A stretch of DNA of 64,000 nucleotides from a candidate division CPR2 bacterium GW2011_GWC2_39_35 (GTDB lineage: Bacteria > Patescibacteriota > CPR2). Below are positions 1,132 through 48,306 of this stretch, piece after piece. The notes beneath the pieces are model-generated. The model did not search any database. It was not told the origin of the DNA and worked only from the letters and a program-made list of their open reading frames with translations. The DNA is taken from positions 223,708-287,707 of the forward strand of contig LBWX01000002.1 in assembly GCA_000995065.1 (NCBI GenBank), read 5' to 3'. Every line of letters begins with the position of its first letter. Position 1 is the stretch's first letter. Position numbers and translations under genes: made by a program.

Positions 1132-2091
1132 ATGCAAAAGATTTTAAGAAAAGAAAAATTAACAGAATTTTTAGAATACTTGGAGGTCAGGTATGATGTT
1201 TATGCCTTAGCAAAAAGTGGGGGAGAGCATGAATATCATTACGAAAAAGTTACCGCCAGGGATTATTCATATACGATAGGAATTTCTGAGGTTACTCCCA
1301 AACATTTCTTTTTGCCGGCAAGCCACGAGATGTTTAAGGCTCTGGGAACTTCTAGTAAAAAGAAAGTTATTTTTGGTGTCCATTACTTTGATATCGAAGC
1401 TATTTCTCTTTTAGATAAAGCTTTTAAATTTCCTATTACCGATCAGGAATTTTTTACTTTAAAAGAGAAGGTAATCATAATTGGGATGGATTACACCCCG
1501 GCGCCAAAAGAGGGTCACGATCTTTATTTGCAAATTTTAGAAGATGAATATGCGGTTACTGCCGGTTCCGGTGTAGGAGCGCGCCTCGCAAAACTTAAAT
1601 TTTTTGAGGAAGCTAAGGCTCATCCTAAAAAAGATTCCTGTCAAACTGAGGATGTGGTTAAAGATTCAAGATTGGCGGCGGCCATCAGGGAAAGCAAGGA
1701 CAGCAAAATTTGGGATGATTTATCCAAAAGATGTTTTGGCTGCGGCACCTGCAGTTACGTTTGCCCTGTTTGCTACTGCTTTGACATAAAAGATACCTTT
1801 GATCTTAAAGGAAACGCCAAAAGAGAAAGGTGTTGGGATTCCTGCATGCTTTCTAATTTTGCTACTATTGCTGGAGGATATGATTTTCGGCCGGAGCTAA
1901 GGAATCGGATTTATAACTGGTATTATCATAAATTTGTTAGAATGCCGAAAGAGCTAAAAAGGGTAGGCTGCGTTGGTTGTTCCAGATGCGTTAGCTTCTG
2001 TCCGGCTCGGATTAATATCCGCGAAGTCTTAAGTGATGTCTTAAAGGAATACGAGAAGAAACATGCCAAAAAATTTATATTATCCAAATAA
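1132..2091 (+). CDS. hydB: Hydrogenase-associated Fe-S subunit (sulfhydrogenase beta / AsrA-like)
   Basis: Two CxxCxxCxxxCP ferredoxin motifs (CFGCGTCSYVCP and CVGCSRCVSFCP). It is the first gene of a four-gene hydrogenase operon. Confidence 0.65.
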   Translation: MQKILRKEKLTEFLEYLEVRYDVYALAKSGGEHEYHYEKVTARDYSYTIGISEVTPKHFFLPASHEMFKALGTSSKKKVIFGVHYFDIEAISLLDKAFKFPITDQEFFTLKEKVIIIGMDYTPAPKEGHDLYLQILEDEYAVTAGSGVGARLAKLKFFEEAKAHPKKDSCQTEDVVKDSRLAAAIRESKDSKIWDDLSKRCFGCGTCSYVCPVCYCFDIKDTFDLKGNAKRERCWDSCMLSNFATIAGGYDFRPELRNRIYNWYYHKFVRMPKELKRVGCVGCSRCVSFCPARINIREVLSDVLKEYEKKHAKKFILSK

Positions 2092-2887
2092 AGCTAAAAT
2101 AATTTTTATTGAAGAGCAAGCGCCAGGAATGAGACTTTTCGGGATTAGATTTTCGGATAAAAATATCCATCAAAGTTTTAATTTTGTACCGGGTCAATTT
2201 GTTTTCTTGTCGCTCTTGGGTCACGGTGAATTTCCGGTTTCCATTAGCTCTCATCCAAATGAAAAAGATTGTTTAGAGCTTCTTATTAGAAATGTAGGGG
2301 CGGTTACGGGTGCCCTTTTTGGCTTAAATGTTGGGGCAGAAGTTGGTATAAGAGGCCCTTTTGGCAATGGCTTTGATATCCGGAAACTTTATGGAAAAGA
2401 TTTGGTAGTAGTTGCCGGAGGATGCGGTGTCGCTCCTCTTAGATCCTTGATGAAAGGGGTCCTTATTGAAAGAAAGAAGTTTAATAAGATATACTTCTTG
2501 TATGGGGCTAGAACTCCTAAGGACATGCTGTTTAAAAAAGACATTCAGGCTTGGCGAAAGCAATGCGGCGTTTATCTTACTGTAGATGAGCCGGATTCTA
2601 GTTGGAAAGAAAATGTCGGCCTTATTACTACTCTTTTTGGGAGTATTAGGGTAGACAAAGCGGCAGTGGCTGTTACTTGCGGCTCTCCGGCCATGTTTAA
2701 GTTTGTTCTTGTCGAGCTTAAGGCCTTGGGACTTAAAGACAGTAATATCTATTTGTCGTTAGAACGGAGAATGAAATGCGGCATCGGAAAATGTCAGCAT
2801 TGCACTTGCGGCGATAAATATGTATGTTTGGATGGACCGGTGTTTGCATTTAGTGAGATAAAAGAAAACCCAGAGGTGTTATTATGA
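2063..2887 (+). CDS. hydG: FAD/NAD(P)-binding oxidoreductase subunit with C-terminal 2Fe-2S (sulfhydrogenase gamma / PyrK-like)
   Basis: PyrK/AsrB-like fold signatures (GGCGVAPL) and a C-terminal Cys cluster CGIGKCQHCTCG. It overlaps the upstream and downstream genes. Confidence 0.65.
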   Translation: MPKNLYYPNKAKIIFIEEQAPGMRLFGIRFSDKNIHQSFNFVPGQFVFLSLLGHGEFPVSISSHPNEKDCLELLIRNVGAVTGALFGLNVGAEVGIRGPFGNGFDIRKLYGKDLVVVAGGCGVAPLRSLMKGVLIERKKFNKIYFLYGARTPKDMLFKKDIQAWRKQCGVYLTVDEPDSSWKENVGLITTLFGSIRVDKAAVAVTCGSPAMFKFVLVELKALGLKDSNIYLSLERRMKCGIGKCQHCTCGDKYVCLDGPVFAFSEIKENPEVLL

Positions 2888-3627
2888 AACATAAAGTAAA
2901 AATTGCAATTTTTGACTTAACAGACTGCGAAGGCTGCGAGCTTCAGTTCTTAGCTTTCGTCGAGAAAGTTTTGGAAATGGACGATCAATTAGAAATTACA
3001 AACTGGCGTCTGGCAAAACAGAAGAATGTCGAAGGCCCTTTTGACGTCGCTTTTATCGAAGGAAGCCCCTTAACCGAAGAAGACATCGAACTAATAAAAG
3101 AGATTAAGAAGCATTCCAAAGCGGTTGTGGCACTTGGAAATTGTGCTTCATTGGCCGGAATTCCGGGTCTCATTAATGGTGAGGAAAGAGAACGGCTTGC
3201 TAAAAAGATCTATGGCCCAAATTACAAACTAAGAGTTAGGGAAGTCCGCCCCCTCAGCCATTATATTGATGTCGATTATGAACTTCGAGGTTGTCCAGTT
3301 ACCGAGAAAGAACTGGAAGAGCTAGTATCAAGCCTAATTTCCGGCAAAAAAGTCGTGCCAAAGACTTATCCGGTATGCTTAGAATGTAAGGCAAATGGTA
3401 ATCCTTGCTTATTTTTAGAAAATAAAGCCTGTCTGGGAGCTGTTACGAAAGGTGGTTGTGGGGCACTTTGTCCGTCTCATGGTCACCGTTGCTATGGCTG
3501 TTTGGGTCCGGTCAGAGAAAACAATACTGATGCCATAACAAACCGTTTATCCGAGACGGTGGGCAAGGACGAAGCAATACGCCAGCTCGAGATTTTTGTA
3601 AATAACCCGATGATGGAGGAAAAATGA
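2884..3627 (+). CDS. hydD: NiFe hydrogenase small (delta) subunit
   Basis: N-terminal DCEGCE proximal-cluster cysteines and a C-terminal Cys-rich Fe-S region (CPSHGHRCYGC). It is translationally coupled (ATGA overlap) to the large subunit. Confidence 0.75.
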   Translation: MKHKVKIAIFDLTDCEGCELQFLAFVEKVLEMDDQLEITNWRLAKQKNVEGPFDVAFIEGSPLTEEDIELIKEIKKHSKAVVALGNCASLAGIPGLINGEERERLAKKIYGPNYKLRVREVRPLSHYIDVDYELRGCPVTEKELEELVSSLISGKKVVPKTYPVCLECKANGNPCLFLENKACLGAVTKGGCGALCPSHGHRCYGCLGPVRENNTDAITNRLSETVGKDEAIRQLEIFVNNPMMEEK

Positions 3628-4862
3628 AAAGTTTAATGAATAACTATATTACTAAGATCGAAGGACACGGAAATTTAAAAGTAAATTTTAATAACGAAAA
3701 AGTGGAGCTTCATGTAGAAGAAGGCGAACGGCTCTTTGAGGGACTTATTCTGGGGAGATATTTTGAGGATGGACCGATAATAACAGCTAGGATCTGCGGT
3801 GTTTGCCCCACGGCTCATACTTTTGCTTCGATAACAGCTTTAGAAAATGCTTTGGATATTAAGGTGTCGGATCACATCGCCACTTTAAGAAAAGTCATGC
3901 TTTCTTTGCAGATTTTTCAAAGTCATGTGCTGCACTTATTCTTTTTGGCGATCCCCGATTATTTAGGAATTGACAATTCCTTAGAGCTTGCTACTGCTAA
4001 TCCGGAAGTTTTTAACACGGTTTTATCCTTAAAGAGGTTGGCCGATGAAGGCATCGAACTTATTGGCGGGCGGCCGATTCATCCGATTACTGCCGTAGTT
4101 GGCGGCTTTACGAAGTTACCGGAATATAAGGACTTAGATGAGTATAAAAAGAAAATCGAAAAGAGCTTGATTCATGCCATAGAGGCTGCCAAAATTTTTA
4201 AGACGGTCAAATATCCGGAAGTAGAAAACGAAAAAGAGTATCTGGCACTCTTGGGATCAAACTATCCGCTTACAGGAGAGGTCGTTGTTTCCTCTCTTGG
4301 TAAGGGTTTTGAGGTCAAAGATTATCAAAAAGTTGTTACCGAAACTGTTAAAAGTTATTCGACTGCCAAGTTTTCTACCAAGGATGGCAAAGGCTTTATG
4401 GTCGGTGCAATTTCCAGGCTTAATCTAAAATATCCGCTTTTAAATAAAGAGGCTTTTGGTTTGGCTGAGGGTGAATTCCCAACCCATAATCCATTTAAGA
4501 ACAACTTAGCCCAGGCTATAGAATTGGTCCATTATATGGAAGAGATCATCGAGCTCATTGGCTCTCTAAAGGACGCTGATTTAAGTCATGCCCGGGATCA
4601 ATTTGAGGTAAAAGCTGGAGTCGGGGCTGGCTGTATCGAAGCACCAAGAGGGCTCCTATTTCATTATTATGAGCTTAATTCAAAAGGCATTATCACTAAG
4701 TGCGACATCATAACTCCAACTGCTCTAAACCTAACGAGTATCGAGGATGATGCGGAAGCGGTTCTTAAAACTAACGGCGGTATCTCGCAAGCGAAAAGGG
4801 AGCATGAGCTAGAGATGCTAGTTAGAGCCTACGATCCATGCATTACGTGCTCGGTACACTAA
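3624..4862 (+). CDS. hydA: NiFe hydrogenase large (alpha) subunit, group 3
   Basis: N-terminal L1 motif RICGVCPTAH and C-terminal L2 motif DPCITCSVH. The protein ends exactly at the His of L2, with no C-terminal extension. Confidence 0.85.
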   Translation: MKSLMNNYITKIEGHGNLKVNFNNEKVELHVEEGERLFEGLILGRYFEDGPIITARICGVCPTAHTFASITALENALDIKVSDHIATLRKVMLSLQIFQSHVLHLFFLAIPDYLGIDNSLELATANPEVFNTVLSLKRLADEGIELIGGRPIHPITAVVGGFTKLPEYKDLDEYKKKIEKSLIHAIEAAKIFKTVKYPEVENEKEYLALLGSNYPLTGEVVVSSLGKGFEVKDYQKVVTETVKSYSTAKFSTKDGKGFMVGAISRLNLKYPLLNKEAFGLAEGEFPTHNPFKNNLAQAIELVHYMEEIIELIGSLKDADLSHARDQFEVKAGVGAGCIEAPRGLLFHYYELNSKGIITKCDIITPTALNLTSIEDDAEAVLKTNGGISQAKREHELEMLVRAYDPCITCSVH

Positions 4863-4865
4863 GAA

Positions 4866-4925
4866 GAATAAAGAATCAGGAATTAAGAATAAAGTAAGTC
4901 TTGTTAGATCATAATTCTTTATTCT
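4866..4925. terminator. Imperfect long hairpin between convergent hydA and hypC (bidirectional terminator candidate)
   Basis: agaataaagaat...attctttattctttattct inverted repeats. Confidence 0.45.
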
Positions 4926-5153
4926 TTATTCTGGGCAGTGGCAATGGTCGTGGCTTTTGGAGAGTTCTAATATTTCGAGAGCGTCGGCTTCCGGCATTTT
5001 ATTGACGCCCAAATCTCCGTGAGCCATGATCCAGTCACCGACCTTAAGGTCTTGTATAAGCACAATATTCACTTTAAATAATTGGCCGTCGTGATCGACT
5101 TCGGCAAATTGGCCGTCTAATGTTTTTACTTGAACGGGAGTTGCTAAACACAC
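4926..5153 (-). CDS. hypC: Hydrogenase maturation factor HypC
   Basis: 75 aa beginning MCLATP (the HypC signature is MC(L/I)(A/G)(I/V)P). It is convergent with hydA. Confidence 0.8.
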   Translation of the reverse strand: MCLATPVQVKTLDGQFAEVDHDGQLFKVNIVLIQDLKVGDWIMAHGDLGVNKMPEADALEILELSKSHDHCHCPE

Positions 5154-5278: not shown

Positions 5279-5397
5279 GTATTCTTACCAAAGATAAGCG
5301 CCGGGGTGAGGGCGAAATTCAAATTGAAAAAAGTGACTTTTTCGGGTATAATCATGAAGTCAAAAAAGTTTTGTCTGTTTATTGTTTTCTGTTTTAT

Positions 5398-5473
5398 AGG
5401 CCCATAGCTCAGGGGTTAGAGCACCGTTCTTATAAAGCGGGGGTCGCGGGTTCAAATCCCGCTGGGCCTACCA
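5398..5473 (+). tRNA. tRNA with anticodon TAT (Ile, AUA-decoding), CCA encoded
   Basis: Manual cloverleaf: acceptor AGGCCCA/TGGGCCT, D-stem GCTC/GAGC, anticodon stem CCGTT/AGCGG (one G-U pair), loop CTTATAA, T-arm GCGGG-TTCAAAT-CCCGC, discriminator A then CCA. Confidence 0.7.
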
Positions 5474-5521: not shown

Positions 5522-5956
5522 ATGTCAACTAAAAACCAAGAATATAAAGACGAAATCTTAGTGACACGGGTAGGGGCTCAGTGTCTTCTAGTGAAAGACA
5601 ACAAGATACTACTCGGCAAAAGAAAAAATGTTTTTGGTGATGGCCATTGGGGACTTCCCGGCGGTCATTTAGAAAAAGGGGAGACCATTCTTGAGGCAGC
5701 GGCCCGGGAGCTAGAAGAAGAGACAGGAGTAAAGGCGATTTCTAGCCAGGTTATCTCCGTTAGCGATGCAAATTTGGAAAACAATTATCATCTTCAAATT
5801 GGTGTATTGGTTACGAAATGGGATGGAGATCCTCAAATAAAAGAGCCAAATAAATGTAGCGAGCTCTCATTTTTTGCTTTAGAAGAATTGCCGGAACCAA
5901 TTTTTATTTCCGCAAAACCCCTAATCGAGAAATTTATTAAGAATGCTTTATATTAA
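5522..5956 (+). CDS. NUDIX hydrolase
   Basis: Nudix box GGHLEKGETILEAAARELEEETGV. Confidence 0.85.
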   Translation: MSTKNQEYKDEILVTRVGAQCLLVKDNKILLGKRKNVFGDGHWGLPGGHLEKGETILEAAARELEEETGVKAISSQVISVSDANLENNYHLQIGVLVTKWDGDPQIKEPNKCSELSFFALEELPEPIFISAKPLIEKFIKNALY

Positions 5957-5957
5957 A

Positions 5958-6034
5958 CTGGGATTAGCGCAACTTGAAAGCGCGCCGCGTTCGGGACACG
6001 GAGGTCGTGAGTTCGAATCCCGCATCCCCGACCA
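5958..6034 (+). tRNA. tRNA-Pro(CGG)-like with three mismatched stem pairs (possible pseudogene), CCA encoded
   Basis: Loop TTCGGGA gives anticodon CGG. D-stem GCGC/GCGC and T-loop TTCGAAT. Mismatches at 2-71 (U.C), 30-40 (C.A) and 52-62 (A.C). The T-arm is like that of tRNA-Pro(GGG) at 60872. Confidence 0.5.
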
Positions 6035-6598: not shown

Positions 6599-6673
<75 letters not shown>

Positions 6674-7196: not shown

Positions 7197-7826
7197 ATGG
7201 CAGATCTAAAACGAAAAATATTTATTGCTGCTGCTGTGATTGTGGCAATCGGTCTAATTTCTGGTATAAGTGCATATTATTATAGCTATTATCAGGATCA
7301 TAAGACCAAAACCCAAAAGGAAACTTCTAAAGATGAAAGCAAGATAAAAAAAGAAGTCAATCAAGTAGATGAAAGCACGTTTCCTAACTCAATTGCTTCA
7401 TTTAATTATTATCCTACAGGCTGGTATGTAAAAGAAAAGGGAGAGGACGTATCAATCCAAGACAGGCCTGGGACTGTGTGGTTGGGAGGTGGGATAGCGC
7501 CAAAAAACGTGCAAGATATCACTTATACAGGACGCATTATTTCCGTGGTGAAAAAAGAACTGGATGGTAAACCTTTTAACGAATGGCTTAGGGATGAGAA
7601 TGAAAATCATGTCATTAAGAATGGCTATCCAGTCCCAGAGCACATTGATGGTTTAGACGGTTTCCGTTTCGTATATTCAGAAGAAATATCTGCCGATATG
7701 CCTTTTATTTATGTATCTAACGGTTTTTCAGTTTACATCATTCGCTTCGAATCGAGCGGAGGAGAATCGGATTCGGAAGGCCTAAGAGTCTTTGAGGAAG
7801 TCATAAAGAGCTTAAATCTAAATTAA
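7197..7826 (+). CDS. Hypothetical membrane-anchored protein
   Basis: N-terminal transmembrane helix and a ribosome-binding site. No recognised domain. Confidence 0.5.
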   Translation: MADLKRKIFIAAAVIVAIGLISGISAYYYSYYQDHKTKTQKETSKDESKIKKEVNQVDESTFPNSIASFNYYPTGWYVKEKGEDVSIQDRPGTVWLGGGIAPKNVQDITYTGRIISVVKKELDGKPFNEWLRDENENHVIKNGYPVPEHIDGLDGFRFVYSEEISADMPFIYVSNGFSVYIIRFESSGGESDSEGLRVFEEVIKSLNLN

Positions 7827-7844
7827 ATAATCTTGATTTGAGGA

Positions 7845-9494
7845 GTGATATGCTTGAAATGGTATTTAAGATTCATTATTTTGCTGTGCGTCTTGGTTTC
7901 GGTATTATTACCGATAAATCCCGATTATGCTAATGCGGAAAGTGTTCATTTAAAGGTTCCTTTTATTCCCCAAGTGCCGCCTGGCCATTGGGGTTACAAA
8001 AGTAACATCGATCATGGCACGTATAATTGCGGGCAGACTTCGGCATTGATGGTAATGTCTTATTATAAGGTTGAACTGCCTGTTTCTGACAAGATCGCTG
8101 AAATAGACAACTGGTTAGCTCAAAAGTATAACGATCCGAAATATTCTGATCATAATAGCTGGTATACGGATACTGATCAACTTGCCGTATTGGCCAAGGA
8201 GTACGGAGGTTTTAAAGAAGCCAGGGCAGAAAATAATTGGAATATTGATAAACTAAAAACCGAGCTTATTAACGGTTGTCCCGTGATAGTAGCGGTACAT
8301 ATACGTATGAATTCGTCTTCTGGTGGACATTTTATGGTCTTAACAGGAATAGATGATGATTATGTGTATGTTAATGATCCAGGCCTAACAAAAGGCATCG
8401 ATAATAAGTATCCTATCTCACAGTTTAAAAGATCTTGGGCAGTTCAAAATAATGCCGTAGTTACTATTCATGAGAAGAAGAATATCGCAATTACCTTCCT
8501 CTTTGATACCACTCACAGCGTTAATGAAAAGGAAATTGAGGCTGCTAAAAGAAACGCTATTTCCGTAGTGAAGGAGCTAGCATTCTTCAAGCCTTATGTC
8601 GCTGCGGCTGATTATCGCGACGTTGTTGAAGAAGGCAAGCAAAATTCTCTGTACGGTATAGAAGGTGATTATCCTTTTAAACCAAGGTTATGTTTTACTC
8701 AGGACTTAAGGCTGGCTGAATCAACCATTAATTCCATCGCTATTGGACCAGCGGGAAGCGGTGGTAACAAGGAGGCAGAGTCAGTTTGCTCAGCTTTAAA
8801 AAGGGGAGTTTCGGGTAATGAGCTTGGCAGCTGGCCTATTGGCTCGGAGCAAAATGTAATTATTTATGGTAATGCAGGCGGTCATATAGAGAGTAAGCCG
8901 GATTCTAATGATGGAAAAGAACCGGTTACCGGCTATTATCGAAGTGATGTTGTACGCGAAGCCTTTAGAAGAGGTGTCTCAAATAGAACGATTATTTTCG
9001 GAGTAGCAACAAGTAACCAGTTTGGTGTGGTTGATGAATTTTCGCGTTACTCGAGGCTTACGGGCGGTTTTGCATCGCTTCTTAACGAAACATCCGATTA
9101 TACGCCCGAATTAGTAGCAAAAAGGGTAGCTAAAGAGATAGAAAATCGTAAGAACCTTGCTTGTGAGAATGTCGAGGTTAGGTTGCCGTCAAAACTGATT
9201 GACTTGACTAGCTTTGAGAATTCTTTTGAAGTTGATCTTGGCTTGCCATCCTCAATTAGTAGAGCGGAGGTTGATGATCTCTCGATTAGGCTTAATTTTG
9301 GAATTCCGCAATGCAAAGTTATGCCGGGAGGTAATAATCAAACTCTTAGGCTATGGTTTGAAAACGAGAGGGCAAGAAAATATCTAAAGAATGGAGCTCA
9401 AGAGATAAAGGTCTATGGTTTTTCCGTAGACAAAGAAGAAAACATAAGATATTTCTTAGGTTCAGCAAATGCGGAGGTGATACATTCGAAATAA
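7845..9494 (+). CDS. Secreted protein with N-terminal C39-like (papain-fold) cysteine peptidase domain
   Basis: YNCGQTSALMVMSYY (catalytic Cys context of Peptidase_C39_2) and GGHFMVLTGIDDDYVYVNDP (His). It has a signal peptide. The likely true start is TTG at 7854 (AGGAG nine nt upstream). Confidence 0.65.
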   Translation: MICLKWYLRFIILLCVLVSVLLPINPDYANAESVHLKVPFIPQVPPGHWGYKSNIDHGTYNCGQTSALMVMSYYKVELPVSDKIAEIDNWLAQKYNDPKYSDHNSWYTDTDQLAVLAKEYGGFKEARAENNWNIDKLKTELINGCPVIVAVHIRMNSSSGGHFMVLTGIDDDYVYVNDPGLTKGIDNKYPISQFKRSWAVQNNAVVTIHEKKNIAITFLFDTTHSVNEKEIEAAKRNAISVVKELAFFKPYVAAADYRDVVEEGKQNSLYGIEGDYPFKPRLCFTQDLRLAESTINSIAIGPAGSGGNKEAESVCSALKRGVSGNELGSWPIGSEQNVIIYGNAGGHIESKPDSNDGKEPVTGYYRSDVVREAFRRGVSNRTIIFGVATSNQFGVVDEFSRYSRLTGGFASLLNETSDYTPELVAKRVAKEIENRKNLACENVEVRLPSKLIDLTSFENSFEVDLGLPSSISRAEVDDLSIRLNFGIPQCKVMPGGNNQTLRLWFENERARKYLKNGAQEIKVYGFSVDKEENIRYFLGSANAEVIHSK

Positions 9495-10680: not shown

Positions 10681-11103
10681 TTATAGTTTCTGTAATAGCT
10701 TTCTAAAATATTTTCTTAAATTTGGATAGGTAAGTTTGTCTTCAACTTCATGAATCGGCACCCAGTCTACTTGGTCGCCTTCGTATTCTATGTTGGTCTC
10801 GGTGTTTAAAGGTCGCAGCAAAAACATGTGGACAACAACGTTTTTGTCTTCAAAGTCGTTGTAATATTCGTCGGGCGGTAGAGATTTAATCATTTCTGTA
10901 TCAATGCCGGTTTCTTCTTTAATTTCCCTAATGGCGGCAAATTCAAAGTCTTCGCCTTCGTCAACATGCCCCTTGGGGAAAGCCCAGTCATTGTGAAATT
11001 TGCGGTACAGTAAAAGCACGTACTTTTGGCCGTTTTCTTCCCGAAAAACTATGCCTCCGGCTTCTACAATTCTGCCTTTCTTGTCAAAAACTTTCTTTTT
11101 CAT
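10681..11103 (-). CDS. NUDIX hydrolase
   Basis: Nudix box PKGHVDEGEDFEFAAIREIKEETG. Confidence 0.85.
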   Translation of the reverse strand: MKKKVFDKKGRIVEAGGIVFREENGQKYVLLLYRKFHNDWAFPKGHVDEGEDFEFAAIREIKEETGIDTEMIKSLPPDEYYNDFEDKNVVVHMFLLRPLNTETNIEYEGDQVDWVPIHEVEDKLTYPNLRKYFRKLLQKL

Positions 11104-11273: not shown

Positions 11274-11350
11274 GGCAGGGTAGCTCAGTCGGTTAGAGCG
11301 TGGGAATCATAACCCCAAGGTCGCGAGTTCGATCCTCGCCCCTGCTACCA
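11274..11350 (+). tRNA. tRNA(CAT): elongator Met or Ile2-type, CCA encoded
   Basis: Acceptor GGCAGGG/CCCTGCT, loop ATCATAA, T-arm GCGAG-TTCGATC-CTCGC, A31.C39. Confidence 0.75.
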
Positions 11351-11710: not shown

Positions 11711-13585
11711 ATGGCAAATATTCCCAAAGTTCCAAAAATACCCAAAAAAGCGAGTGAAAGTAAGGCTTCCAAGGGCTTTATATATTTTCTTATTGGGCTT
11801 GCATTATTATTCGGAATTTACAGTCTTAACGACGGTGATAAGTCTAATATCGAGAGAGTTCCAATCTCTCAGGTTGTTCAAGAGGTGAAGCAAGATCAAG
11901 TTAAAAAAATACAGGACGATAAGGGTAACTTGACGGTTGAACTTAGAGATGGTAAAAAACAAAAGACGCAGATAGGCTCCGGCCAGTCTGTTACCACGCT
12001 TCTAAAAGATTACGGCGTCGATCCGGCCAAAGTTGAAACTTTAGACGTAGTAGAGAGTACTGATGCGAGCATGTGGGTCAATATTATTCTTTCGATTCTG
12101 CCGTTTGCGGTAATTGGTTTCTTTCTATACTTCATGATGAAGCAGGCGCAAGGTTCTAATAATCAGGCCATGATGTTTGGCAAGTCGAAAGCCAGACTTT
12201 TTGGACCGGATAAAAAGAAAGTAACTTTTGCCGATGTGGCTGGGGTCGAGGAAGCAAAACAAGAACTGAACGAGATTGTAGACTTTCTTAAAAATCCCAA
12301 AAAGTTTACCGATCTTGGCGCCAAAATTCCAAAAGGTGTTTTGATGGTTGGTTTGCCCGGAACGGGTAAAACCTTGCTTTCTAGAGCTGTAGCCGGCGAA
12401 GCTGGCGTGCCGTTTTTCTCCATTTCAGGTTCTGAGTTTGTGGAAATGTTCGTGGGCGTTGGTGCCTCTAGAGTAAGAGATTTATTCCAAAGAGCCAAAA
12501 AGAACGCTCCGTGTATTATCTTTATCGATGAAATTGATGCTGTCGGCAGGCAGCGAGGTGCCGGTCTTGGTGGATCTCACGATGAAAGAGAACAGACCTT
12601 AAACCAAATCCTAGTAGAGATGGATGGTTTTGAGCAGGATACGAATGTTATTGTGATGGCAGCTACCAACCGGCCGGACGTTCTTGATCCGGCGCTACTT
12701 AGACCCGGCCGATTTGACAGAAGGGTTGTTTTAGACGCCCCCGATCTTAAGAGCCGCGTTTCTATTTTGGAAGTTCATGCTAAGGGAAAACCTCTCGAAA
12801 AAGATGTCGATCTAGAAGAAATTGCCAAGCATACCCCGGGATTTTCCGGGGCGGATCTGGCTAACTTGGTAAACGAAGCGGCAATTTTAGCCGGCAGAAG
12901 AAACTTAAAAAAGGTGAGTCAATCTGAGCTTACCGAAGCAGTAGAAAAAGTTCTTTTAGGTCCCGAGCGAAAATCTCATATATTGTCTCCAAAAGAAAAA
13001 GAGATTACGGCTTATCATGAGGCTGGCCACGCTATTGTCGGTCATCTATTACCGCATTGCGATAAAGTTCACAAGGTGTCGGTAGTGTCTAGAGGACAAG
13101 CTGGCGGCTATACCTGGAGTATTCCGGACGAAGATAAATACATGCACTCGAAGGTGGATTTCGAAGATCAAATTGCGATGATGCTTGGCGGACGAATTGC
13201 CGAAAAGGTAATTTACGGTGCTGACAATGTGACGACCGGAGCCGAGAACGATCTTCGGCAAGCGACAAAACTCGCCCGAAAAATGGTGGTTGAGTATGGC
13301 ATGTCAGAAAAAATGGGTGCCAGAGTATTTGGCCACAAAGAAGAAATGGTCTTTTTAGGCCGAGAACTTGGTGAACACACCAAGGATTATTCTGAAGCCA
13401 CAGCTAACAAAATTGATGATGAAGTAACCCGAATCATCGGTGAAGGTATTCGTAAAGCTGAAAAGATCATTAAAGACCACACAGAAAAACTAAAAACCAT
13501 CTCCAAGGAACTCTTAGAAAAAGAGATCCTAAACGCTGCCGAATTCGAAAAGATCATGGGCGGGCCAAAGAAAGTAGCAGCATAA
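11711..13585 (+). CDS. ftsH: ATP-dependent zinc metalloprotease FtsH
   Basis: N-terminal transmembrane segment, AAA Walker A GLPGTGKT, second region of homology, and the HEAGH zinc site. Confidence 0.95.
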
Positions 13586-19024: not shown

Positions 19025-19191
19025 TGTTAAGTTACCTCCTTTCGTATCGGGATTTTAGATTGGCTTTATTATAGCAAAAAATTCCTATTTTGTTAATAGA
19101 ATAGAAAAGTAATACTAACCTAATTGTCATATTATTTGTGATATTTTTAGTTAAGATTGTTTTGGTTAGAAACTATAGTTATAATATCAGA

Positions 19192-19650
19192 ATGGACTCT
19201 TTATTTTTTCAATATTGTCCAAAAATTGCTGTATTTAGTCAGGATGGATCAAGCGTTCTTTTGTGTCGTCGAAAAGGGGAGGCGGACTACGATGGCGTGT
19301 TCTCATTCATTGGTGGCAAGATGGAGCACAAGGATTTGTCAATTATCGATGCACTGAGTAGGGAGAAGACCGAAGAGGTCGGCGAATTGTTTCGGATAAA
19401 AGTTCTGCCTCATTACAGCATTGATACTTTTTTCGTAAAGAAGGATGGCAGTCGCATGATTCTTCCTCATTATTATGCCGTGCATCAATCGGGTGAAATC
19501 AATTTAAGCGAAGAATATGATGATTATCGTTGGGTTCCTTTAAACTCCCTTGATGAATTTGAGCCAAAGATTGAAAATATTGCTTGGATTGCAACACTTT
19601 TAAGCCGCGCTGCGACAATTGCAGAGGATGAGGATTTTGTTGCCGTTTAG
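19192..19650 (+). CDS. NUDIX hydrolase
   Basis: Nudix box GGKMEHKDLSIIDALSREKTEEVGE. Start placed at the in-frame Met MDSLFF. Confidence 0.75.
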   Translation: MDSLFFQYCPKIAVFSQDGSSVLLCRRKGEADYDGVFSFIGGKMEHKDLSIIDALSREKTEEVGELFRIKVLPHYSIDTFFVKKDGSRMILPHYYAVHQSGEINLSEEYDDYRWVPLNSLDEFEPKIENIAWIATLLSRAATIAEDEDFVAV

Positions 19651-28681: not shown

Positions 28682-29917
28682 ATGGAATATAATTATTCGG
28701 ATATGAAGACAGAGTTAATCTTACCCGCAGGAGACTTATATAAAGCCAAAATTGCTTTTCTGTATGGTGCGGATGCATGTTATGGCGGCTTAGCGAAATA
28801 TTCGCTTCGGAAAGCCGAAGTGGATTTCGATTTTGATACCTTAAAAGAAGCGATTCGCTATGCCCATTCATTCGGCAAAAAATTTTTTGTCACGTTTAAT
28901 ATTTTTGCCCACAATTATAATCTCGAAAAAATCGAAGAGGATATCAAAAAAGTGGCAGAGTTTAAACCGGATGCCATTATTGCTTCAGATCCGGGTATTA
29001 TTCAATTTGTAAGAGAAAACAGCGACATTCCAGTTCATCTGAGTACTCAGGCCAACACAACAAATTGGCAGTCCGTTAAATTTTGGCAGGACTTAGGAAT
29101 AAAGCGAATTGTACTCGCAAGAGAACTAGCTTTAAAGGAGATTCAGGAAATTCACAACAAAGTGCCGGACGTCGAACTTGAGGTTTTCGTCCATGGCGCC
29201 ATGTGTATCTCGTATTCTGGTAGATGTCTTCTTTCTGCAGTCATGACGGGTCGGGAAGCGAATCAGGGCGATTGCGCCCAGCCATGCCGCTGGCTTTATA
29301 AAGGCCAAATAGAAGAGAAGATGCGTCCCGGGGATTTTTTTCCGGTTAGAGAAGACGAAAACGGCACTTATATCTTTAATTCTAAAGATTTAAGGCTAAT
29401 CGAACATCTGCCGGAGCTTATTAAAGCCGGTGTTACTGGTTTTAAGGTGGAAGGAAGGAACAAGAGCGAGTATTATGTTGCAGTGATTGCCAGGGCTTAT
29501 AAAAAAGCGTTGGAGGCCTTTAAGGCAGGCAAATTTTTAGATTGTTTAGAGGAATTAAGGGCTGAAACCGAAACTATAAATTATCGGGATTACACAACCG
29601 GATTTTTATTTGGTGAAGCTAAAAAAGGTGAAGTGTATCCGGATCGAGTGCAGATTCGAACCCATAATTTCTTAGGCGTTATCGAAGAATATGATAACGG
29701 GTTTGCCAAAATTCCGATTAGGAACCAATTTAAAATTAGTGACGAGATAGAGATTATCACTCCCAACAAGATCTTTAAAGAGAAAGTAGGGGCAATTCTA
29801 GACCGGAACAAACAAGTAGTAGAGGTTGCCAATCCCGGTGCCAAAGAACACATAGCGTATGTTAAACTATCGAGGGAATATCCGAAGTACGCTATGGTTA
29901 GGAAAAGACTTAAATAA
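28682..29917 (+). CDS. Peptidase U32 family protein
   Basis: ELILPAGDL ... YGADACYGG N-terminal TIM-barrel signature and the conserved Cys-containing CISYSGRCLLS region. Confidence 0.8.
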   Translation: MEYNYSDMKTELILPAGDLYKAKIAFLYGADACYGGLAKYSLRKAEVDFDFDTLKEAIRYAHSFGKKFFVTFNIFAHNYNLEKIEEDIKKVAEFKPDAIIASDPGIIQFVRENSDIPVHLSTQANTTNWQSVKFWQDLGIKRIVLARELALKEIQEIHNKVPDVELEVFVHGAMCISYSGRCLLSAVMTGREANQGDCAQPCRWLYKGQIEEKMRPGDFFPVREDENGTYIFNSKDLRLIEHLPELIKAGVTGFKVEGRNKSEYYVAVIARAYKKALEAFKAGKFLDCLEELRAETETINYRDYTTGFLFGEAKKGEVYPDRVQIRTHNFLGVIEEYDNGFAKIPIRNQFKISDEIEIITPNKIFKEKVGAILDRNKQVVEVANPGAKEHIAYVKLSREYPKYAMVRKRLK

Positions 29918-42491: not shown

Positions 42492-45224
42492 TTGCGGTAC
42501 AGTTACTTGAAAACTGAATATTTATCAGTGAACATAGGAGATTTAGGATTAGGAAAAGGAGTGGATTTCGTGAAAGAGATAGTAGTAGAGCAAGGCGCAG
42601 GGGATGAAGAAAAAAGAATGATTGAAAACATGCGAGGGATAGCAGTGGATGATGCGGAATTCGTAATAATGGCAGAAGAAAAGAAAGACACAGTGAATAA
42701 AAAACTATGGCTTGAAAACATGACGCGGATAACCGAAGATGATCTTCAATTCGTTTCGGGCACGGCTTGGAGGTTCTATAAACAGAATTCCATACTATTG
42801 GGAATGCTGGGTATAGACTTTTGTAGCCTGGAAGATGCGGCTTTCGGCGGTATGGAGGATGCGTGTAAAAGATACGATGAGACAAGAGGAAAAAGCTTGC
42901 GAGGATTCTATTACATTCGGGTTGTCGGAAGCATGTGGGATTTCATAAGAAGCCGCTCGCTTATCTCCAGATCAGCTCTAAAGGCCATAAAGGAAGTTCA
43001 GAGCTATGTTGCAAGCCAAAGCCAAGATGGCCGTGTAGTAACAAGCTCGGAGATATATGAAATATTTTCCGAGGCTCACGTAATGGCAATGGCGCAATCT
43101 AATAACAGGGTCGCTTTTCCGCTGTCGCTGGATCAAATTGTGTTGTATGGCGGCCAAGGGGGCAGGGTACAGGCTGAGACTTCTTATCATAACCTCATTT
43201 CTGATGATAGCGATACTGAAGACGATGCGACTTACCAGCAGGCTCTTGAAGAGCTTCGTGATGTCATCAAAGAGGTTAGTCTTAACTATGGTTCGTCGCC
43301 CGAGGTGAAGGAAAGAGCATTGTCGTTAATGGAAAAACGGTATAATTTCGATAGCGACTCAAAAGCTCCTTCGTTTAGGGAGCTAGGAGATGAATTCGGT
43401 TGTACCGAAAGTCGAGTAAGCCAAATTCACAGTAAGCTAATCAGCAAGCTGAAGGATGAAGAACCTGCATTGGATATTCTTAGGGACCTGGCGAGCAGGA
43501 TTAGCCGTCAAGGCATCTCTTCTCGTCAATCTGTTCGGATAGTATCCTTTGGTCAGCCGGACCTGACTCCTCCTCCGCACATTCGCCAGAAAAGAAGAAT
43601 ATCTAAACGTGAAGATGTCTACGACAAAAATGTAGCATCAGAGGAAACGTTGTTGGAGGCGGAGGATATTGAAGTCGAAGGAGTATCCGATGACAGCAGC
43701 ACCCCTCAGGATACTAAAGCTGTTTTTTTGTTTGATTCAGACATCAGGGCCTATAAGATTATGCTCGATTTATTGAAGAAGAGCAAAGATGGATTGGTGC
43801 GACTCAAAGAAAAGCATAAGGTTACTGATGAAGTACTTCTAAAGCTTAGGCGCAAGGGCTTTGCGATAATGCAAAGTGACGGCTCTGTGCTGGTGCAGAA
43901 GAAGAAATACATCAGGATGCCAGATCCTGAGTCAGAGTCCAGGCAGGATAAAGCTGTTTTTTCTTCGAGGAAAGCTAGGATTAAAGATAGCGAACCAGGG
44001 AAACGAGGGGCGCGAAAACTCACTGATTCTGATTGGGAGGAGCGCCACAAAGAGACGCTCGCGAAACTTTATGAGCGTTTCCCAGACGGATGTGTCGTTG
44101 GCGGACTGGGGACGATCTTTATCGAACTGAATATGAGAGGAGGTTTCAATTATCTTAAGAGATTCAAAGAAGACTCCGGTTTTCTGGAGGAGACTAGTCG
44201 CCTAAGGCATAGTTTTTCTGAGAAGGCAGAAGCTTATCTGGAATCTATAGGCAAGATCCTAATCAAGACGGAACCGGAGGATGTGCCCGAAGAGTCCAAA
44301 AACATAACTGCCACATCCGGAAAACCCGGAAGACAAAAGCTCTCTTCTGACCATTGGAGTGCTCGTCATAAAGAGACGCTAAAAAAACTCTACGACCAAT
44401 TCCCCGATGGATGGGTCATTGGTGGACTGAGTACGGTCTTTAAGGATCTGGGCATTGTCGGAGGACAGAGTTATCTTCAGAGGTTCAGAGACGTATCTGG
44501 TTTCCTTCTAAAGGTCAATGGATGGAAACATTGTTTCTCTGATGAGGCAATTGCCTATCTGGAATCGATTGGGCTAACCATTATCGAGCCAGAAGAGGAC
44601 GACTCGCTGGAAACCGATGATATCTCGACTTCAGGATCAAGAAGAGGCGGAAGGCGGAAGCTTACTGATGCAGACTGGGATGTTCGTTTGAGAGTCACGG
44701 TAGAGAAGCTTCATGAACGATTCCCAGATGGGTGGATAGTCGGTTCCCTGACTGAGATCTTTAGAGACTTAGGCATCAAGGGAGGATACAACTATCTTCA
44801 CAGGTTCAGAGAGTCCTTCTACATTCGCAAGGTTAAACATAGACAACATCGCCTTACCGATATTGCCAGCAGGTATCTCGAATCGATTGGAAAGAATATA
44901 ATCGAATCGGATCCAGGGAAGTACGATCAGGAACGATTCTTGCGGTCTTCCCAAAAGGCGGTCGAGATTTTAACGCCCATGGTTAAAACTATGAAGCAAG
45001 ATGACTGGCTTGCTGAGTTCTTGAGTAATGTTGTGCAAGAGAACGGTGGCTTTTGTTACAAAACGGATCTTGAAACTACTTGCAAAGACAAATATGGTTT
45101 TGTAAAAAAAGTCATGCTTAAGACTGCACGAAATGACGGGTACGTCAGCGAGGAAAGTGGCGGTAGCGGCGAGATAACCGAAAAAGGACAGGAGTTCTTA
45201 AGACAGAAGGGCTATATTAACTAA
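42492..45224 (+). CDS. Sigma-70-family-like protein (regions 2 and 4) fused to a ~590-aa C-terminal extension with three ~95-aa tandem repeats
   Basis: Region 2-like YDETRGKSLRGFYYIRVVGSMWDFIRSRS and region 4-like FRELGDEFGCTESRVSQIHSKLISKLK. Three repeats of LTD.DWE.RHKETL.KLYE.FPDGWV.GGL.T.F..LGI.GG..YL.RF...SGFL......S..A.AYLESIG. The gene looks locally GC-richer. Confidence 0.55.
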   Translation: MRYSYLKTEYLSVNIGDLGLGKGVDFVKEIVVEQGAGDEEKRMIENMRGIAVDDAEFVIMAEEKKDTVNKKLWLENMTRITEDDLQFVSGTAWRFYKQNSILLGMLGIDFCSLEDAAFGGMEDACKRYDETRGKSLRGFYYIRVVGSMWDFIRSRSLISRSALKAIKEVQSYVASQSQDGRVVTSSEIYEIFSEAHVMAMAQSNNRVAFPLSLDQIVLYGGQGGRVQAETSYHNLISDDSDTEDDATYQQALEELRDVIKEVSLNYGSSPEVKERALSLMEKRYNFDSDSKAPSFRELGDEFGCTESRVSQIHSKLISKLKDEEPALDILRDLASRISRQGISSRQSVRIVSFGQPDLTPPPHIRQKRRISKREDVYDKNVASEETLLEAEDIEVEGVSDDSSTPQDTKAVFLFDSDIRAYKIMLDLLKKSKDGLVRLKEKHKVTDEVLLKLRRKGFAIMQSDGSVLVQKKKYIRMPDPESESRQDKAVFSSRKARIKDSEPGKRGARKLTDSDWEERHKETLAKLYERFPDGCVVGGLGTIFIELNMRGGFNYLKRFKEDSGFLEETSRLRHSFSEKAEAYLESIGKILIKTEPEDVPEESKNITATSGKPGRQKLSSDHWSARHKETLKKLYDQFPDGWVIGGLSTVFKDLGIVGGQSYLQRFRDVSGFLLKVNGWKHCFSDEAIAYLESIGLTIIEPEEDDSLETDDISTSGSRRGGRRKLTDADWDVRLRVTVEKLHERFPDGWIVGSLTEIFRDLGIKGGYNYLHRFRESFYIRKVKHRQHRLTDIASRYLESIGKNIIESDPGKYDQERFLRSSQKAVEILTPMVKTMKQDDWLAEFLSNVVQENGGFCYKTDLETTCKDKYGFVKKVMLKTARNDGYVSEESGGSGEITEKGQEFLRQKGYIN

Positions 45225-45298
45225 ACTGTATAGGCGAGGTGACAAAAGGGACCGGTTCTTAATTTGAAGCTAATACTACTTAATGTTTTATTAAGTAA

Positions 45299-45790
45299 AT
45301 GCTTCATTTTAAGAATCGGTCCCGAATTATTTATGGGTTTTACTTCTCAATTACTCATGAAGACGATGAAATGAGAGGCCTTATTAGCAAAACCGACCAC
45401 AAGACACTGGCTCTTTGGAGTATTGATTGTGCGGAAAGAGTTATGCACTATTTTGAAACAGAATACACCGATGATCCTCGGCCTCGCGAAGCTATCAACA
45501 CTCTTCAGGAATGGATTAAAACGAGTAAATTCAGTATGAGGATTATCCGTCAAGCATCGTTAGCCTCACACGCCGCAGCCAAAGAGATTGGCAATGATAG
45601 TCCGGCTGCATCCGCAGCACATGCAGCTGGACAAGCCGTTGCGACTGCTCATGTATCAACGCATTCTTATGGACCTGCCGTATATGCTCAACAAGCTGTT
45701 TTTAAAGCTACAAACTCGTTAGACGCTGTTCAAAAAGAGAGGGATTGGCAATTTCAGCATTTGCTAGACCTTGGGGCCAAGAAGTACTAA
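45299..45790 (+). CDS. Putative immunity-protein-like all-alpha protein (LALW..DCAE..PRPRE family, Ala/His-rich)
   Basis: HKTLALWSIDCAERVMHYFE, DDPRPREAINTLQEWI, and the AASAAHAAGQAVATAHVSTH repeat typical of small orphan 'immunity protein' ORFs. The likely start is the internal MRGLIS. Confidence 0.5.
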   Translation: MLHFKNRSRIIYGFYFSITHEDDEMRGLISKTDHKTLALWSIDCAERVMHYFETEYTDDPRPREAINTLQEWIKTSKFSMRIIRQASLASHAAAKEIGNDSPAASAAHAAGQAVATAHVSTHSYGPAVYAQQAVFKATNSLDAVQKERDWQFQHLLDLGAKKY

Positions 45791-46075
45791 TTGCGACAAA
45801 TAAGTACTTAGCAGATTAGATTATTTGCATCATTAATAAAATAAGCTACCGAGAAATAGCTTATTAAGTATGCGTTCCATTTGGCGAGCCGAGATGTGCT
45901 TGAACTACTTCGTTTAACCGTGTTAATTTCAGACGTTCGTACTAGTATCTAGTTTCCATAATATGTATGATCAAATTAGATTAATAATGGGGTTATATGT
46001 GGGAGAAAATTAAAGATACTGTACTTTTGCATCAAGCGCAAAGCATAGTATTGTCTTTGATCGTTATTATCGGTA

Positions 46076-46426
46076 TTGCAGGCACCAGCTACTTTGTATT
46101 TCAAAAAGGTAATTCAAAATAATAATACGAAAGAAGGCACTCCTAGCAGTAGTACGGGGTCGTGCAGTGGGTTAGTCAAGTTTGGTGCCGTCTCAGTGGA
46201 GAAAGATCCGGCAGGAGATTCGGGGGCGTGGTTACGATTCGGCTATACGGCCGAAAAGGAGCTTAATTGTCAGTACACGATCACCTTCTACGACAGTCGA
46301 GAAGAGATAATCCGAACAATCCCAAATGTTGAAGATACCTTTCAATCTCCGAGCGGCCAGATCTATAATGGCTACAGCAGTACACCCTACCAATCAGGCA
46401 TGTCTGCAAAAGTTATCGTCAACTAG
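46076..46426 (+). CDS. Hypothetical small secreted protein (start uncertain; an overlapping upstream 41-aa transmembrane ORF sits in the -1 frame)
   Basis: 116 aa with a Ser/Thr-rich N-terminus and no known domain. Confidence 0.35.
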   Translation: MQAPATLYFKKVIQNNNTKEGTPSSSTGSCSGLVKFGAVSVEKDPAGDSGAWLRFGYTAEKELNCQYTITFYDSREEIIRTIPNVEDTFQSPSGQIYNGYSSTPYQSGMSAKVIVN

Positions 46427-46516
46427 TTTATAGTTCAGAGATTATAAAAACGCAAATACCGTGCTCAAAAGAGAACCGTCCCCTAAAAGTCTTACTGGAA
46501 CTATTCAATACTTACT

Positions 46517-47530
46517 TCATTCCTTTGAAGTGTATTTGAAGTTCACATCACGTTGTTTGGTAGGGAGCTGAAAACCGTCAATTTCAAAGGGATATGCAAG
46601 CACCCCGCCGGGGAAAGTCGCGTCGGGGCTGTAGCTCTTCCAATAGAAGAACGAGGTTGGCTGAACCCAATGCAGATTTTGGTTGCCCTGTTTTACGGTC
46701 AGATTTTTTGATTTGTCTGGCACCTTGAAACAAAATGAAGCAAAGGAGTGCTCGCCCACGTTCCCGGCATATCCGACCAGCTCCCCTCGTTTTACCGTCC
46801 GACCAATGAGCGCTTTGCAGGCTTTGGCGTTACCTTTCGAGGGAACTACATAATCATCAACTGGATAGAAAAGATGCCCTTCGGCCTGGTTATTTTTAGC
46901 GCCCCATTCAACATCATCACAATCTGAATTTTGGTAGTGCCCTTGCATTAAAGGCGAAGTATATAAATGATAAAGAATAATAGTCATTCCTGGCCAGTCA
47001 GGACTAGCAGATTCAAAAGTCAGCTCGATATCATTCATCGGTGTGTATTTTTTCCCGTCTGCTCCAATCCCAGATTCGCTGCTTTGATTCTTGAAACCAA
47101 CCAATGTCATATCTATTGGCGCAAGTAATGGTGCCTTGCTCTTAAGTTCGAATTCCATGCCACGCTTACCAGAATATGGCGTCGTCTTTGAATGAGAACC
47201 AACTTTGGGGCCGAGAGTAACAATATCTGAGTCAGCCCCTGTACCACCATACATTTCCGTATGAGTATTAATACCTTCCATGTTGGATGGGGGTGAAGTA
47301 ATCGCGGATACGCTTGTTGTGGGTACAGTTGGGATAGAAGTTGGCGAAGACATAGTGCTTGGTATCGATTTTTTGCTCTGTTTTTTTCCAGCCTTATTCA
47401 CTATTCCAAGACCAGCCAAAGCAAGTACAATTACAATAATAATTAAAATAAGCCCCATCCACCAATATTTTTTTAAGAAAGGTTTTTTGCTTGAAGGCTC
47501 ATTTTTCTCTTGATTGTTATCCAGCTCCAT
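46517..47530 (-). CDS. Membrane-anchored LytM/M23-like domain protein with degenerate active-site motifs
   Basis: Transmembrane helix, Ser/Thr/Pro-rich linker, and VKRGELVGYAGNVGEHSFASFCFKV resembling the M23 C-terminal G.V.kGq.IG.vG.TG.stGPHLHFE but lacking the HxH. Confidence 0.35.
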   Translation of the reverse strand: MELDNNQEKNEPSSKKPFLKKYWWMGLILIIIVIVLALAGLGIVNKAGKKQSKKSIPSTMSSPTSIPTVPTTSVSAITSPPSNMEGINTHTEMYGGTGADSDIVTLGPKVGSHSKTTPYSGKRGMEFELKSKAPLLAPIDMTLVGFKNQSSESGIGADGKKYTPMNDIELTFESASPDWPGMTIILYHLYTSPLMQGHYQNSDCDDVEWGAKNNQAEGHLFYPVDDYVVPSKGNAKACKALIGRTVKRGELVGYAGNVGEHSFASFCFKVPDKSKNLTVKQGNQNLHWVQPTSFFYWKSYSPDATFPGGVLAYPFEIDGFQLPTKQRDVNFKYTSKE

Positions 47531-47616
47531 TTGCTATAACTATACCACAAAATTAGCTTATTTTAGTATGCGTTCTATTCGGCGAGGTTAGTAGCGTTGG
47601 AACCTGCTCAAAATTC

Positions 47617-48306
47617 CTAACTTATATCCAAATCCCAAAGGATTGTCTTGAATAGTTCGTCACGATATTGGTTTAAAAAGTCATGATTTCCGTCAAGATT
47701 GATAATTCGGCTATTCTTTATGAGCCTAAGATTGTTGAAATCCATAACCTCGTCATTGATTGCATAAATAAGGGTAAGTTCGGTTTTCTTCGCTAGATTG
47801 TTGTAAAGTGAAACTACATCTGTTGTAAATCTTTCAGCCCAGTATTCTGGAGGGATGACAGTCACAGAACCATCGCTTCTACGTCTTCGGGTAATGTTGT
47901 AGAAATCTAATTGATTATCGGCAAGAGCCGTATAACGTTTCTGTAAATCTTCGATTTTAGTTTGAAAAAATGGTGATACTCCGATCACTTTTTCTACCTT
48001 GTCCGAGTTTTGACAGAGAGTTGGTATTAGGCTTCCCTGTGAATGCCCGATGATAATAATACTTTTGTATCTCTCGTCCCTGACTAGCTCATTGATGTGT
48101 TTCTGAAGGATGGACGCCTGGTCAGAAAAAGGTACAGCAAAAAGCTCCTTAGAATCCCCATCAAACTTATTGTAATTAAATTGTTTTGTTACAAATCCCC
48201 GTGATTCTAGCATAGACGCTAAAAAGGAAAATAGTCCTCGGGCATCTTTCATAACCCCAAAGCCATGCGAAAATAATATTACTGTATCTTGTGGTTTGTA
48301 TTTCAT
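47617..48306 (-). CDS. Alpha/beta-hydrolase fold protein
   Basis: Nucleophile elbow IIIGHSQGS and N-terminal HGFG. Confidence 0.6.
   Translation of the reverse strand: MKYKPQDTVILFSHGFGVMKDARGLFSFLASMLESRGFVTKQFNYNKFDGDSKELFAVPFSDQASILQKHINELVRDERYKSIIIIGHSQGSLIPTLCQNSDKVEKVIGVSPFFQTKIEDLQKRYTALADNQLDFYNITRRRRSDGSVTVIPPEYWAERFTTDVVSLYNNLAKKTELTLIYAINDEVMDFNNLRLIKNSRIINLDGNHDFLNQYRDELFKTILWDLDIS

Follow-up and report, generated by a model that had tools for sequence, protein, structure and literature searches.

A tRNA-Ile gene with a UAU anticodon in a CPR2 bacterium and a likely lysidine-independent reading of AUA

Introduction

The genome of the candidate division CPR2 bacterium GW2011_GWC2_39_35, an inhabitant of the Rifle aquifer, carries, within a stretch of 64,000 nucleotides that was analysed as a whole (contig LBWX01000002.1; referred to below as the window), a tRNA gene whose anticodon reads UAU, which raises the question of how this bacterium decodes the isoleucine codon AUA. 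In the canonical solution AUA is read by tRNA-Ile2(CAU) carrying the lysidine that is made by TilS, an enzyme commonly regarded as almost universal among bacteria and as indispensable to them. The 29 confident open reading frames (ORFs) of the window, which has a G+C content of 39%, contain 236 AUA codons, or 22% of all isoleucine codons, and 206 AUG codons. With AUA this frequent and outnumbering AUG, the genome needs a decoder for it; AUA is a major codon of the CPR2 bacterium and requires an efficient reader.

Structure and identity of the tRNA gene

The gene and the putative promoter that precedes it comprise the following features:

5324..5352, plus strand: sigma-70-type promoter-like site, TTGAAA-17 nt-TATAAT, agreeing with the consensus at 11 of 12 positions
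5398..5473, plus strand: tRNA-Ile(UAU) gene of 76 nt that includes its own CCA, identified by ARAGORN, Rfam, its Ile-type acceptor stem and compensatory changes
5431..5433, plus strand: anticodon TAT (U34 A35 U36) within the loop C32-U33-U34-A35-U36-A37-A38, from ARAGORN and a reading of the sequence

A first-pass annotation of the window had described a tRNA with canonical 7/4/5/5 arms, U33, A37 and the anticodon TAT, and every one of these structural details is borne out by ARAGORN, Rfam and our reading of the sequence. Of the nine tRNA genes that ARAGORN detects in the window, one is tRNA-Ile(tat), on the plus strand at exactly 5398..5473, where the annotation had placed it; its anticodon is assigned to position 34. 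The Rfam family RF00005, which has a gathering score of 29, matches positions 5398-5470 at 70.5 bits, the top score among the nine tRNAs. The sequence, AGGCCCATAGCTCAGGGGTTAGAGCACCGTTCTTATAAAGCGGGGGTCGCGGGTTCAAATCCCGCTGGGCCTACCA, folds into an acceptor stem of 7 bp (AGGCCCA/TGGGCCT) that is Watson-Crick throughout, a D stem of 4 bp (GCTC/GAGC), an anticodon stem of 5 bp (CCGTT/AGCGG) that includes one G-U pair, and a T stem of 5 bp (GCGGG/CCCGC), and it ends in the discriminator A73 and a gene-encoded CCA. The promoter-like site ends 46 nt from the 5' end of the tRNA, and, judging by the consensus match, the tRNA may be transcribed from this site of its own. An identical TAT gene was also found in six other independent assemblies of the same organism, all with T at position 34.

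The acceptor stem points to isoleucine. Published discriminators mark tRNA-Ile(CAT) by G3-C70 or A3-U70 together with C4-G69 and C5-G68, Met and fMet by C3-G70, and fMet additionally by A11-U24 with G12-C23 (PMC1635315). By these discriminators the window tRNA, with G3-C70, C4-G69, C5-G68 and A73, is of the Ile type, unlike the C3-G70 of Met and fMet. With the anticodon masked, the identity of the UAU tRNA body is 0.69 to Ile2(CAT), 0.70 to Ile(GAT), 0.62 to both Met and Val, and 0.48 to fMet. A choice between Ile2(CAU) and Ile1(GAU) as the ancestor of the UAU tRNA was attempted on this basis and abandoned, the masked identities of 0.69 and 0.70 being uninformative. In Escherichia coli, the identity set of the isoleucyl-tRNA synthetase (IleRS) comprises the discriminator A73, A37 and A38 of the anticodon loop and U12-A23, with a further element, C29-G41, in the anticodon stem. 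A73, A37, A38, T12 and A23 can all be read off the window sequence; the E. coli element in the anticodon stem is absent, its place being taken by G29-C41. Pair 29-41 varies freely among the UAU tRNAs of CPR bacteria, which argues that it is probably no identity element in these tRNAs.

In an alignment of 50 distinct UAU tRNAs, 18 of the 21 stem pairs show compensatory changes on both sides, and positions C32-A37 are invariant in all 50. Such a combination of covarying stems and an invariant loop argues that UAU tRNA genes are old and under selection. Judged by its sequence features, the window gene is a bona fide isoleucine tRNA with a UAU anticodon, and expressed-looking.

Spread of tRNA-Ile(UAU) among bacteria

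A census based on a pattern of the D arm and a YTTATAA anticodon loop, with one genome per species, gave at least 120 matches, and ARAGORN called tRNA-Ile(tat) in 115 of the 120 listed. Of these confirmed matches, 65 come from sources labelled as CPR/Patescibacteria (Parcubacteria, Saccharibacteria, Microgenomates classes, Dojkabacteria, Peribacteria and others), and 32 further sources are metagenome-assembled genomes (MAGs) labelled "uncultured bacterium" or, oddly, "Gammaproteobacteria", many with low G+C or CPR-type tRNA clusters. The remaining sources among them are Ignavibacteria, Dormiibacterota, Bacteroidota, Clostridia, one chlamydia, a MAG labelled Planctomycetota, and Streptomyces plasmids. 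Overall, TAT is kept in more than 130 lineages. The first-pass annotation had called a genomically encoded UAU anticodon rare; this agrees with the literature on bacteria at large, where UAU tRNA-Ile species are "very few" (PMC3919564) and rare generally (PMC1635315), but it does not hold for CPR bacteria, in which such genes are abundant (at least 115 confirmed, mostly CPR).

In 21 of the loci listed, ftsH falls within the 8-kb block that holds the tRNA, in one of two layouts. The order ftsH, Ile(UAU), Val/Leu tRNAs is found mostly in loci labelled as Parcubacteria and Saccharibacteria. The order Ile(UAU), fMet, Met, ftsH, which is that of the window, occurs in loci labelled as Woesebacteria and Dojkabacteria and in one labelled as Saccharibacteria.

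Genomic neighbourhood and the CAU tRNAs

The window layout is anchored by three further features:

6599..6673, plus strand: initiator tRNA-fMet(CAU), a member of the conserved Ile(UAU)-fMet-Met cluster, recognised by its C1xU72 mismatch, A11 and G12, and GGG/CCC in the anticodon stem
11274..11350, plus strand: elongator tRNA-Met(CAU), 361 nt upstream of ftsH, recognised by C3-G70, A4-U69, G5-C68 and A73
11711..13585, plus strand: ftsH, the syntenic anchor, from Pfam annotation

The full order is tRNA-Ile(UAU), a NUDIX gene, tRNA-Pro, divIC, tRNA-fMet, three ORFs, a NUDIX gene on the minus strand, tRNA-Met, ftsH, eamA (minus strand), murJ and lepA. The genes flanking tRNA-Ile(UAU) are housekeeping or hydrogenase genes. 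The space directly upstream of ftsH, which in relatives is the site of tilS, is occupied by tRNA-Met and a divergent NUDIX gene.

Two tRNAs with CAT anticodons had been noted in the window, and ARAGORN finds them at 6599-6673 and 11274-11350. The proposal that the 6599 gene is initiator-like agrees with its C1xU72 mismatch and A11/G12, and the suggestion that the 11274 gene might be elongator Met rather than Ile2 is upheld by C3-G70, A4-U69 and G5-C68; orthologues sharing the acceptor stem of the latter adjoin initiator tRNAs in CPR loci. By the acceptor-stem discriminators, no CAU tRNA of the Ile2 type is present within the 64-kb window.

Search for tilS

No match to a TilS profile was found in the 64-kb window, including the region upstream of ftsH; the six other assemblies of the same organism and the 120 census loci among the matches listed, 21 of which include ftsH, gave none either. 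Pfam and NCBIfam likewise identify neither tilS nor ileS among the window ORFs, and a tblastn search with E. coli TilS gave no match in the window or the census loci. That query is a weak one, reaching one true TilS (in locus L135) at only E = 8e-6, and a profile built from 26 TilS sequences was used instead, with the negative result unchanged. In 1.92 Mb of comparison sequence the profile recovers 28 tilS genes, all of which end 0.08-2.5 kb upstream of ftsH, and the 10 candidates tested all pass NCBIfam TIGR02432, scoring 143-197 bits where 93.6 is required. Protein searches with TilS returned no CPR2-named TilS among the best matches, about a quarter of which were named. The TilS substrate, C34, is itself absent from the window tRNA-Ile: with T in place of C at position 34, lysidine cannot form, and TilS is left without a substrate.

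tilS and tRNA-Ile(TAT) in relatives

Because the census loci had been selected for having the tRNA, we built an independent sample anchored on FtsH, comprising 80 metagenome loci retrieved with the window FtsH at 52-78% identity, or 65 lineages when grouped at 95% identity. In this sample one lineage has tilS near ftsH and TAT in the same locus, 24 have only tilS, 18 have only TAT and 22 have neither (Fisher's exact p = 2.7e-4, a significance inflated by the fact that kinship among lineages is ignored). Restricting the comparison to well-flanked loci gives one with both, 15 with tilS only, 12 with TAT only and nine with neither (p = 0.0016). The pattern is clear: tilS and tRNA-Ile(TAT) nearly exclude each other in the relatives, and just one of the 19 TAT lineages has tilS nearby. 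The 22 lineages out of 65 with neither system near ftsH show that the synteny is not obligatory. AUA use in ftsH does not differ between the groups, at 0.26-0.30 in tilS lineages versus 0.27-0.28 in TAT lineages.

Every Ile2-like tRNA(CAT) gene, defined by G3-C70 and in most cases C4-G69 and C5-G68 as well, comes from a tilS-positive locus; these genes occupy the sites that TAT takes elsewhere: beside tilS in L133 and L136, just downstream of ftsH in L174, and in the order Ile2(CAT)-fMet...Met-tilS-ftsH in L192 and L194. The closest relatives of the window, L128-L132 (FtsH 76-78% identical), have the window layout, without tilS, and a TAT tRNA that is 87-90% identical to that of the window across two measures. 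The order TAT-...-fMet-Met-ftsH-murJ-lepA, without tilS, in L128 and the window can be set beside Ile2(CAT)-tilS-ftsH-murJ-lepA in L133 and TAT-divIC-fMet-Met...tilS-ftsH-murJ in L135. The last of these belongs to the lineage that has both systems (L134/L135; Patescibacteria, 60% G+C), with the tRNA at L135:1792 and an intact tilS at 7802-9109 whose product scores 142.9 bits against TIGR02432. Named homologues of this TilS are annotated as "Patescibacteria group bacterium" and those of the L192 TilS as "Candidatus Saccharimonadales", from which it follows that lysidine users and UAU users are intermingled within CPR, together with one or more lineages that combine the two systems. The L134/L135 lineage is a redundant intermediate stage, and the states seen here (both, tilS only, UAU only) match the stages proposed by Taniguchi et al. 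for the replacement of tilS (PMC3575796).

Discussion

The absence of tilS from the window and from the site upstream of ftsH, together with its near-exclusion with TAT in relatives, makes a lysidine-independent strategy likely in the CPR2 bacterium. The first-pass annotation had proposed that a UAU anticodon implies a different decoding strategy. The same two lines of evidence speak for this proposal; one related lineage carries both systems.

Several known systems help to rationalise how such a strategy could work. The nearest is tRNA-Ile2(UAU) of Mycoplasma mobile (PMC3575796, PMC1635315), which shares with the CPR2 gene a genomic UAU on an Ile-type body, the use of AUA, the lack of an Ile2-type tRNA(CAU) and the lack of tilS where it would be expected (here, the window and the ftsH site). 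It differs in that M. mobile is a single species of Tenericutes, whereas the CPR case concerns many lineages of Patescibacteria. In M. mobile U34 is unmodified, IleRS carries Arg865, and discrimination depends on the ribosome (PMC3575796). A Bacillus subtilis suppressor of a tilS deletion, tRNA-Ile1 G34U, sustains near wild-type growth without TilS on a UAU tRNA-Ile alone (Kohrer et al. 2014, PMC3919564), and its unmodified U34 binds AUA far better than AUG on cognate ribosomes (PMC3919564). That tRNA is a laboratory mutant of tRNA-Ile1(GAU), whereas the CPR gene is natural and ancient. Bifidobacterium and Neorickettsia likewise have a tRNA-Ile(UAU) in the absence of tilS, as the CPR2 bacterium probably does, and they depend on an IleRS of the eukaryote/archaeal type (PMC3575796). 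No ileS gene lies within the 64-kb window, and the class-Ia synthetases of the comparison loci are valyl-tRNA synthetases (ValRS); a search of these loci with E. coli IleS gave, in CPR, ValRS matches and no IleRS. With the canonical system of tRNA-Ile2(CAU), lysidine and TilS, the CPR2 gene has in common the decoding of AUA, the acceptor signature G3-C70, C4-G69, C5-G68 and A73, and the chromosomal positions that tRNA-Ile2(CAU) takes in relatives, beside ftsH or in an Ile-fMet-Met cluster; it differs in having T34 rather than C34 and in the absence of tilS from its conserved site.

On these grounds we consider it probable that in the CPR2 bacterium the UAU tRNA-Ile reads AUA directly, taking the place of tRNA-Ile2(CAU) and TilS. 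The tRNA would be made from its own promoter and charged with isoleucine, and AUA would be read by U34-A pairing. Synteny and the anticorrelation in relatives, for a genome whose longest contig runs to 522 kb and of which 64 kb were examined, suggest that tilS and tRNA-Ile2(CAU) would both have been lost from the whole genome. By analogy with M. mobile and the B. subtilis suppressor, an IleRS tolerating U34 would charge the tRNA, and properties of the tRNA and the ribosome would hold misreading of AUG low.

The proposed loss is what a redundant arrangement would deny: tilS and tRNA-Ile2(CAU) could lie elsewhere in the genome, with the UAU tRNA as a second, parallel decoder of AUA, as in the intermediate of Taniguchi et al. 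Both systems do occur together in some bacteria (PMC3575796), the L134/L135 lineage combines a bona fide TilS with the same TAT-divIC-fMet-Met cluster, and our view covers 64 kb of the genome. We nevertheless regard redundancy in the CPR2 bacterium as unlikely, given that no tilS precedes ftsH at the conserved site, either in the window or in L128-L132, that tilS accompanies TAT so seldom in the FtsH-anchored lineages (one of 19), and that the best, partly named TilS matches include none named CPR2.

Two further readings question the gene itself. One C-to-T change could in principle turn a CAT gene into TAT, and the window gene might then be a pseudogene or an undetermined tRNA, such as a recent C34-to-T mutant of tRNA-Ile2, or might not be used for isoleucine. 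This seems very improbable for a gene with the top Rfam score in the window, a strong promoter-like site and TAT fixed in six assemblies, whose L128 orthologue, 87-90% identical, has kept TAT; more than 130 lineages do likewise, with covarying stems and an unchanging anticodon loop, and AUA is abundant with no other decoder visible in the window. That the gene was acquired recently, horizontally or from a phage, as a supplement to the host set and independently of any loss of tilS, is a reading with a precedent in the tRNA-Ile(UAU) genes on mobile DNA elsewhere, such as the Streptomyces plasmids (L013, L093), but it is, if anything, even harder to credit here: the Ile(UAU)-fMet-Met-ftsH position is kept in CPR2 relatives, Woesebacteria and Dojkabacteria, and the gene is flanked by housekeeping and hydrogenase genes, with no mobile-element genes adjoining it. 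The gene is conserved, its stems covary, TAT is fixed from one assembly to the next and the synteny is kept, and on these grounds we reject both the pseudogene and the recent-transfer readings.

Direct reading of AUA by a UAU tRNA-Ile is a mechanism already known in kind (TilS-independent, of the M. mobile type), and in this respect the window gene is a moderate surprise. The wide spread of UAU tRNA-Ile in CPR and its site-for-site alternation with tilS are apparently unreported in the searchable literature, where a search for work linking CPR/Patescibacteria with lysidine or tilS found nothing relevant. A broader proposal, which we put forward tentatively and hold to be rather doubtful as it stands, is that large parts of CPR, including CPR2, have dropped TilS and lysidine and read AUA by tRNA-Ile(UAU), perhaps with a lineage-specific solution to the AUA/AUG problem (a new U34 modification, or an adaptation of IleRS or the ribosome unlike that of M. 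mobile). If true, no other bacterial group that decodes AUA without lysidine would come near CPR in size. The both-system, tilS-only and UAU-only stages that coexist in the lineages compared here offer a natural series in which to study the replacement of an essential tRNA-modification system and the separation of AUA from AUG without lysidine. For annotators there is also a warning, in that a missing tilS is no sign of an incomplete CPR genome.

Other observations

Among the listed census matches, 16 MAGs with tRNA-Ile(UAU) are titled 'uncultured Gammaproteobacteria' (L016, L017, L031, L040, L054, L061 and others); these are probably mislabelled CPR genomes, because several are poor in G+C or share tRNA clusters of the CPR type. 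The initiator tRNA of L017 is identical to that of Patescibacteria loci. On Streptomyces plasmid or plasmid-like contigs (L013 and L093; 67-69% G+C), tRNA-Ile(UAU) adjoins tRNA-Leu(UAA), a pair that decodes A-ending codons, which are rare in the host. In Microgenomates-type loci (L007, L011, L017, L054, L056, L063, L117), tRNA-Ile(UAU) adjoins an odd initiator-like tRNA (TGCGGGGTAGTGTACGGCTGCACG...), whose D arm departs from the canonical form. ValRS (TIGR00422, 850-910 bits) stands beside tRNA-Ile(UAU), usually with tRNA-Val(GAC), in the Parcubacteria-type loci L012, L028, L081 and L106, and about 9.5 kb from tRNA-Ile(UAU) and tRNA-Val in L164. The TilS proteins of L133:8269-9999 and L136:1952-3661 have an extra N-terminal extension of about 150 aa with a zinc-ribbon-like CxxC...CxxC pattern, absent from ordinary TilS.

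Directly upstream of the window tRNA, at 1132-5153, lie four NiFe hydrogenase genes (Fe-S, FAD/NAD-binding, small and large subunits) and hypC, a cluster that is kept in the CPR2 relative L128. The 64 kb contain four NUDIX hydrolase genes (5522-5956; 10681-11103, minus strand; 19138-19650; 61058-61600), two of which flank the tRNA cluster. A U32-family protein encoded at 28682-29917 on the plus strand has its best match to TrhP, the prephenate-dependent tRNA U34 hydroxylase, at 420.5 bits, below the equivalog cut-off of 534 bits, and scores 181 bits for UbiU; if active, this TrhP-like protein would need to spare tRNA-Ile(UAU), the decoding of which would otherwise be broadened. Further downstream, a protein of 910 aa that contains a FliA-like sigma-factor region (42492-45224, plus strand) is followed by an Imm5-like immunity protein (45299-45790, plus strand), and an Apea-like HEPN protein (48494-49879, minus strand) is encoded nearby; judging from these domains, the region 42492-49879 may be a toxin/immunity or defence neighbourhood.

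Among the other tRNAs of the window, tRNA-Pro(CGG) (5958-6034, plus strand) reaches only 39.9 bits with Rfam versus 63-70 for the other eight, and the usual GG is missing from its D loop (AACTTGAAA). The 3' CCA is gene-encoded in all nine. The elongator tRNA-Met at 11274-11350 on the plus strand has a G1-U72 wobble and, at the base of its anticodon stem, the mismatch A31xC39, in place of which A31xA39 is frequent in CPR tRNA-Met orthologues (L033, L066, L095 and others).
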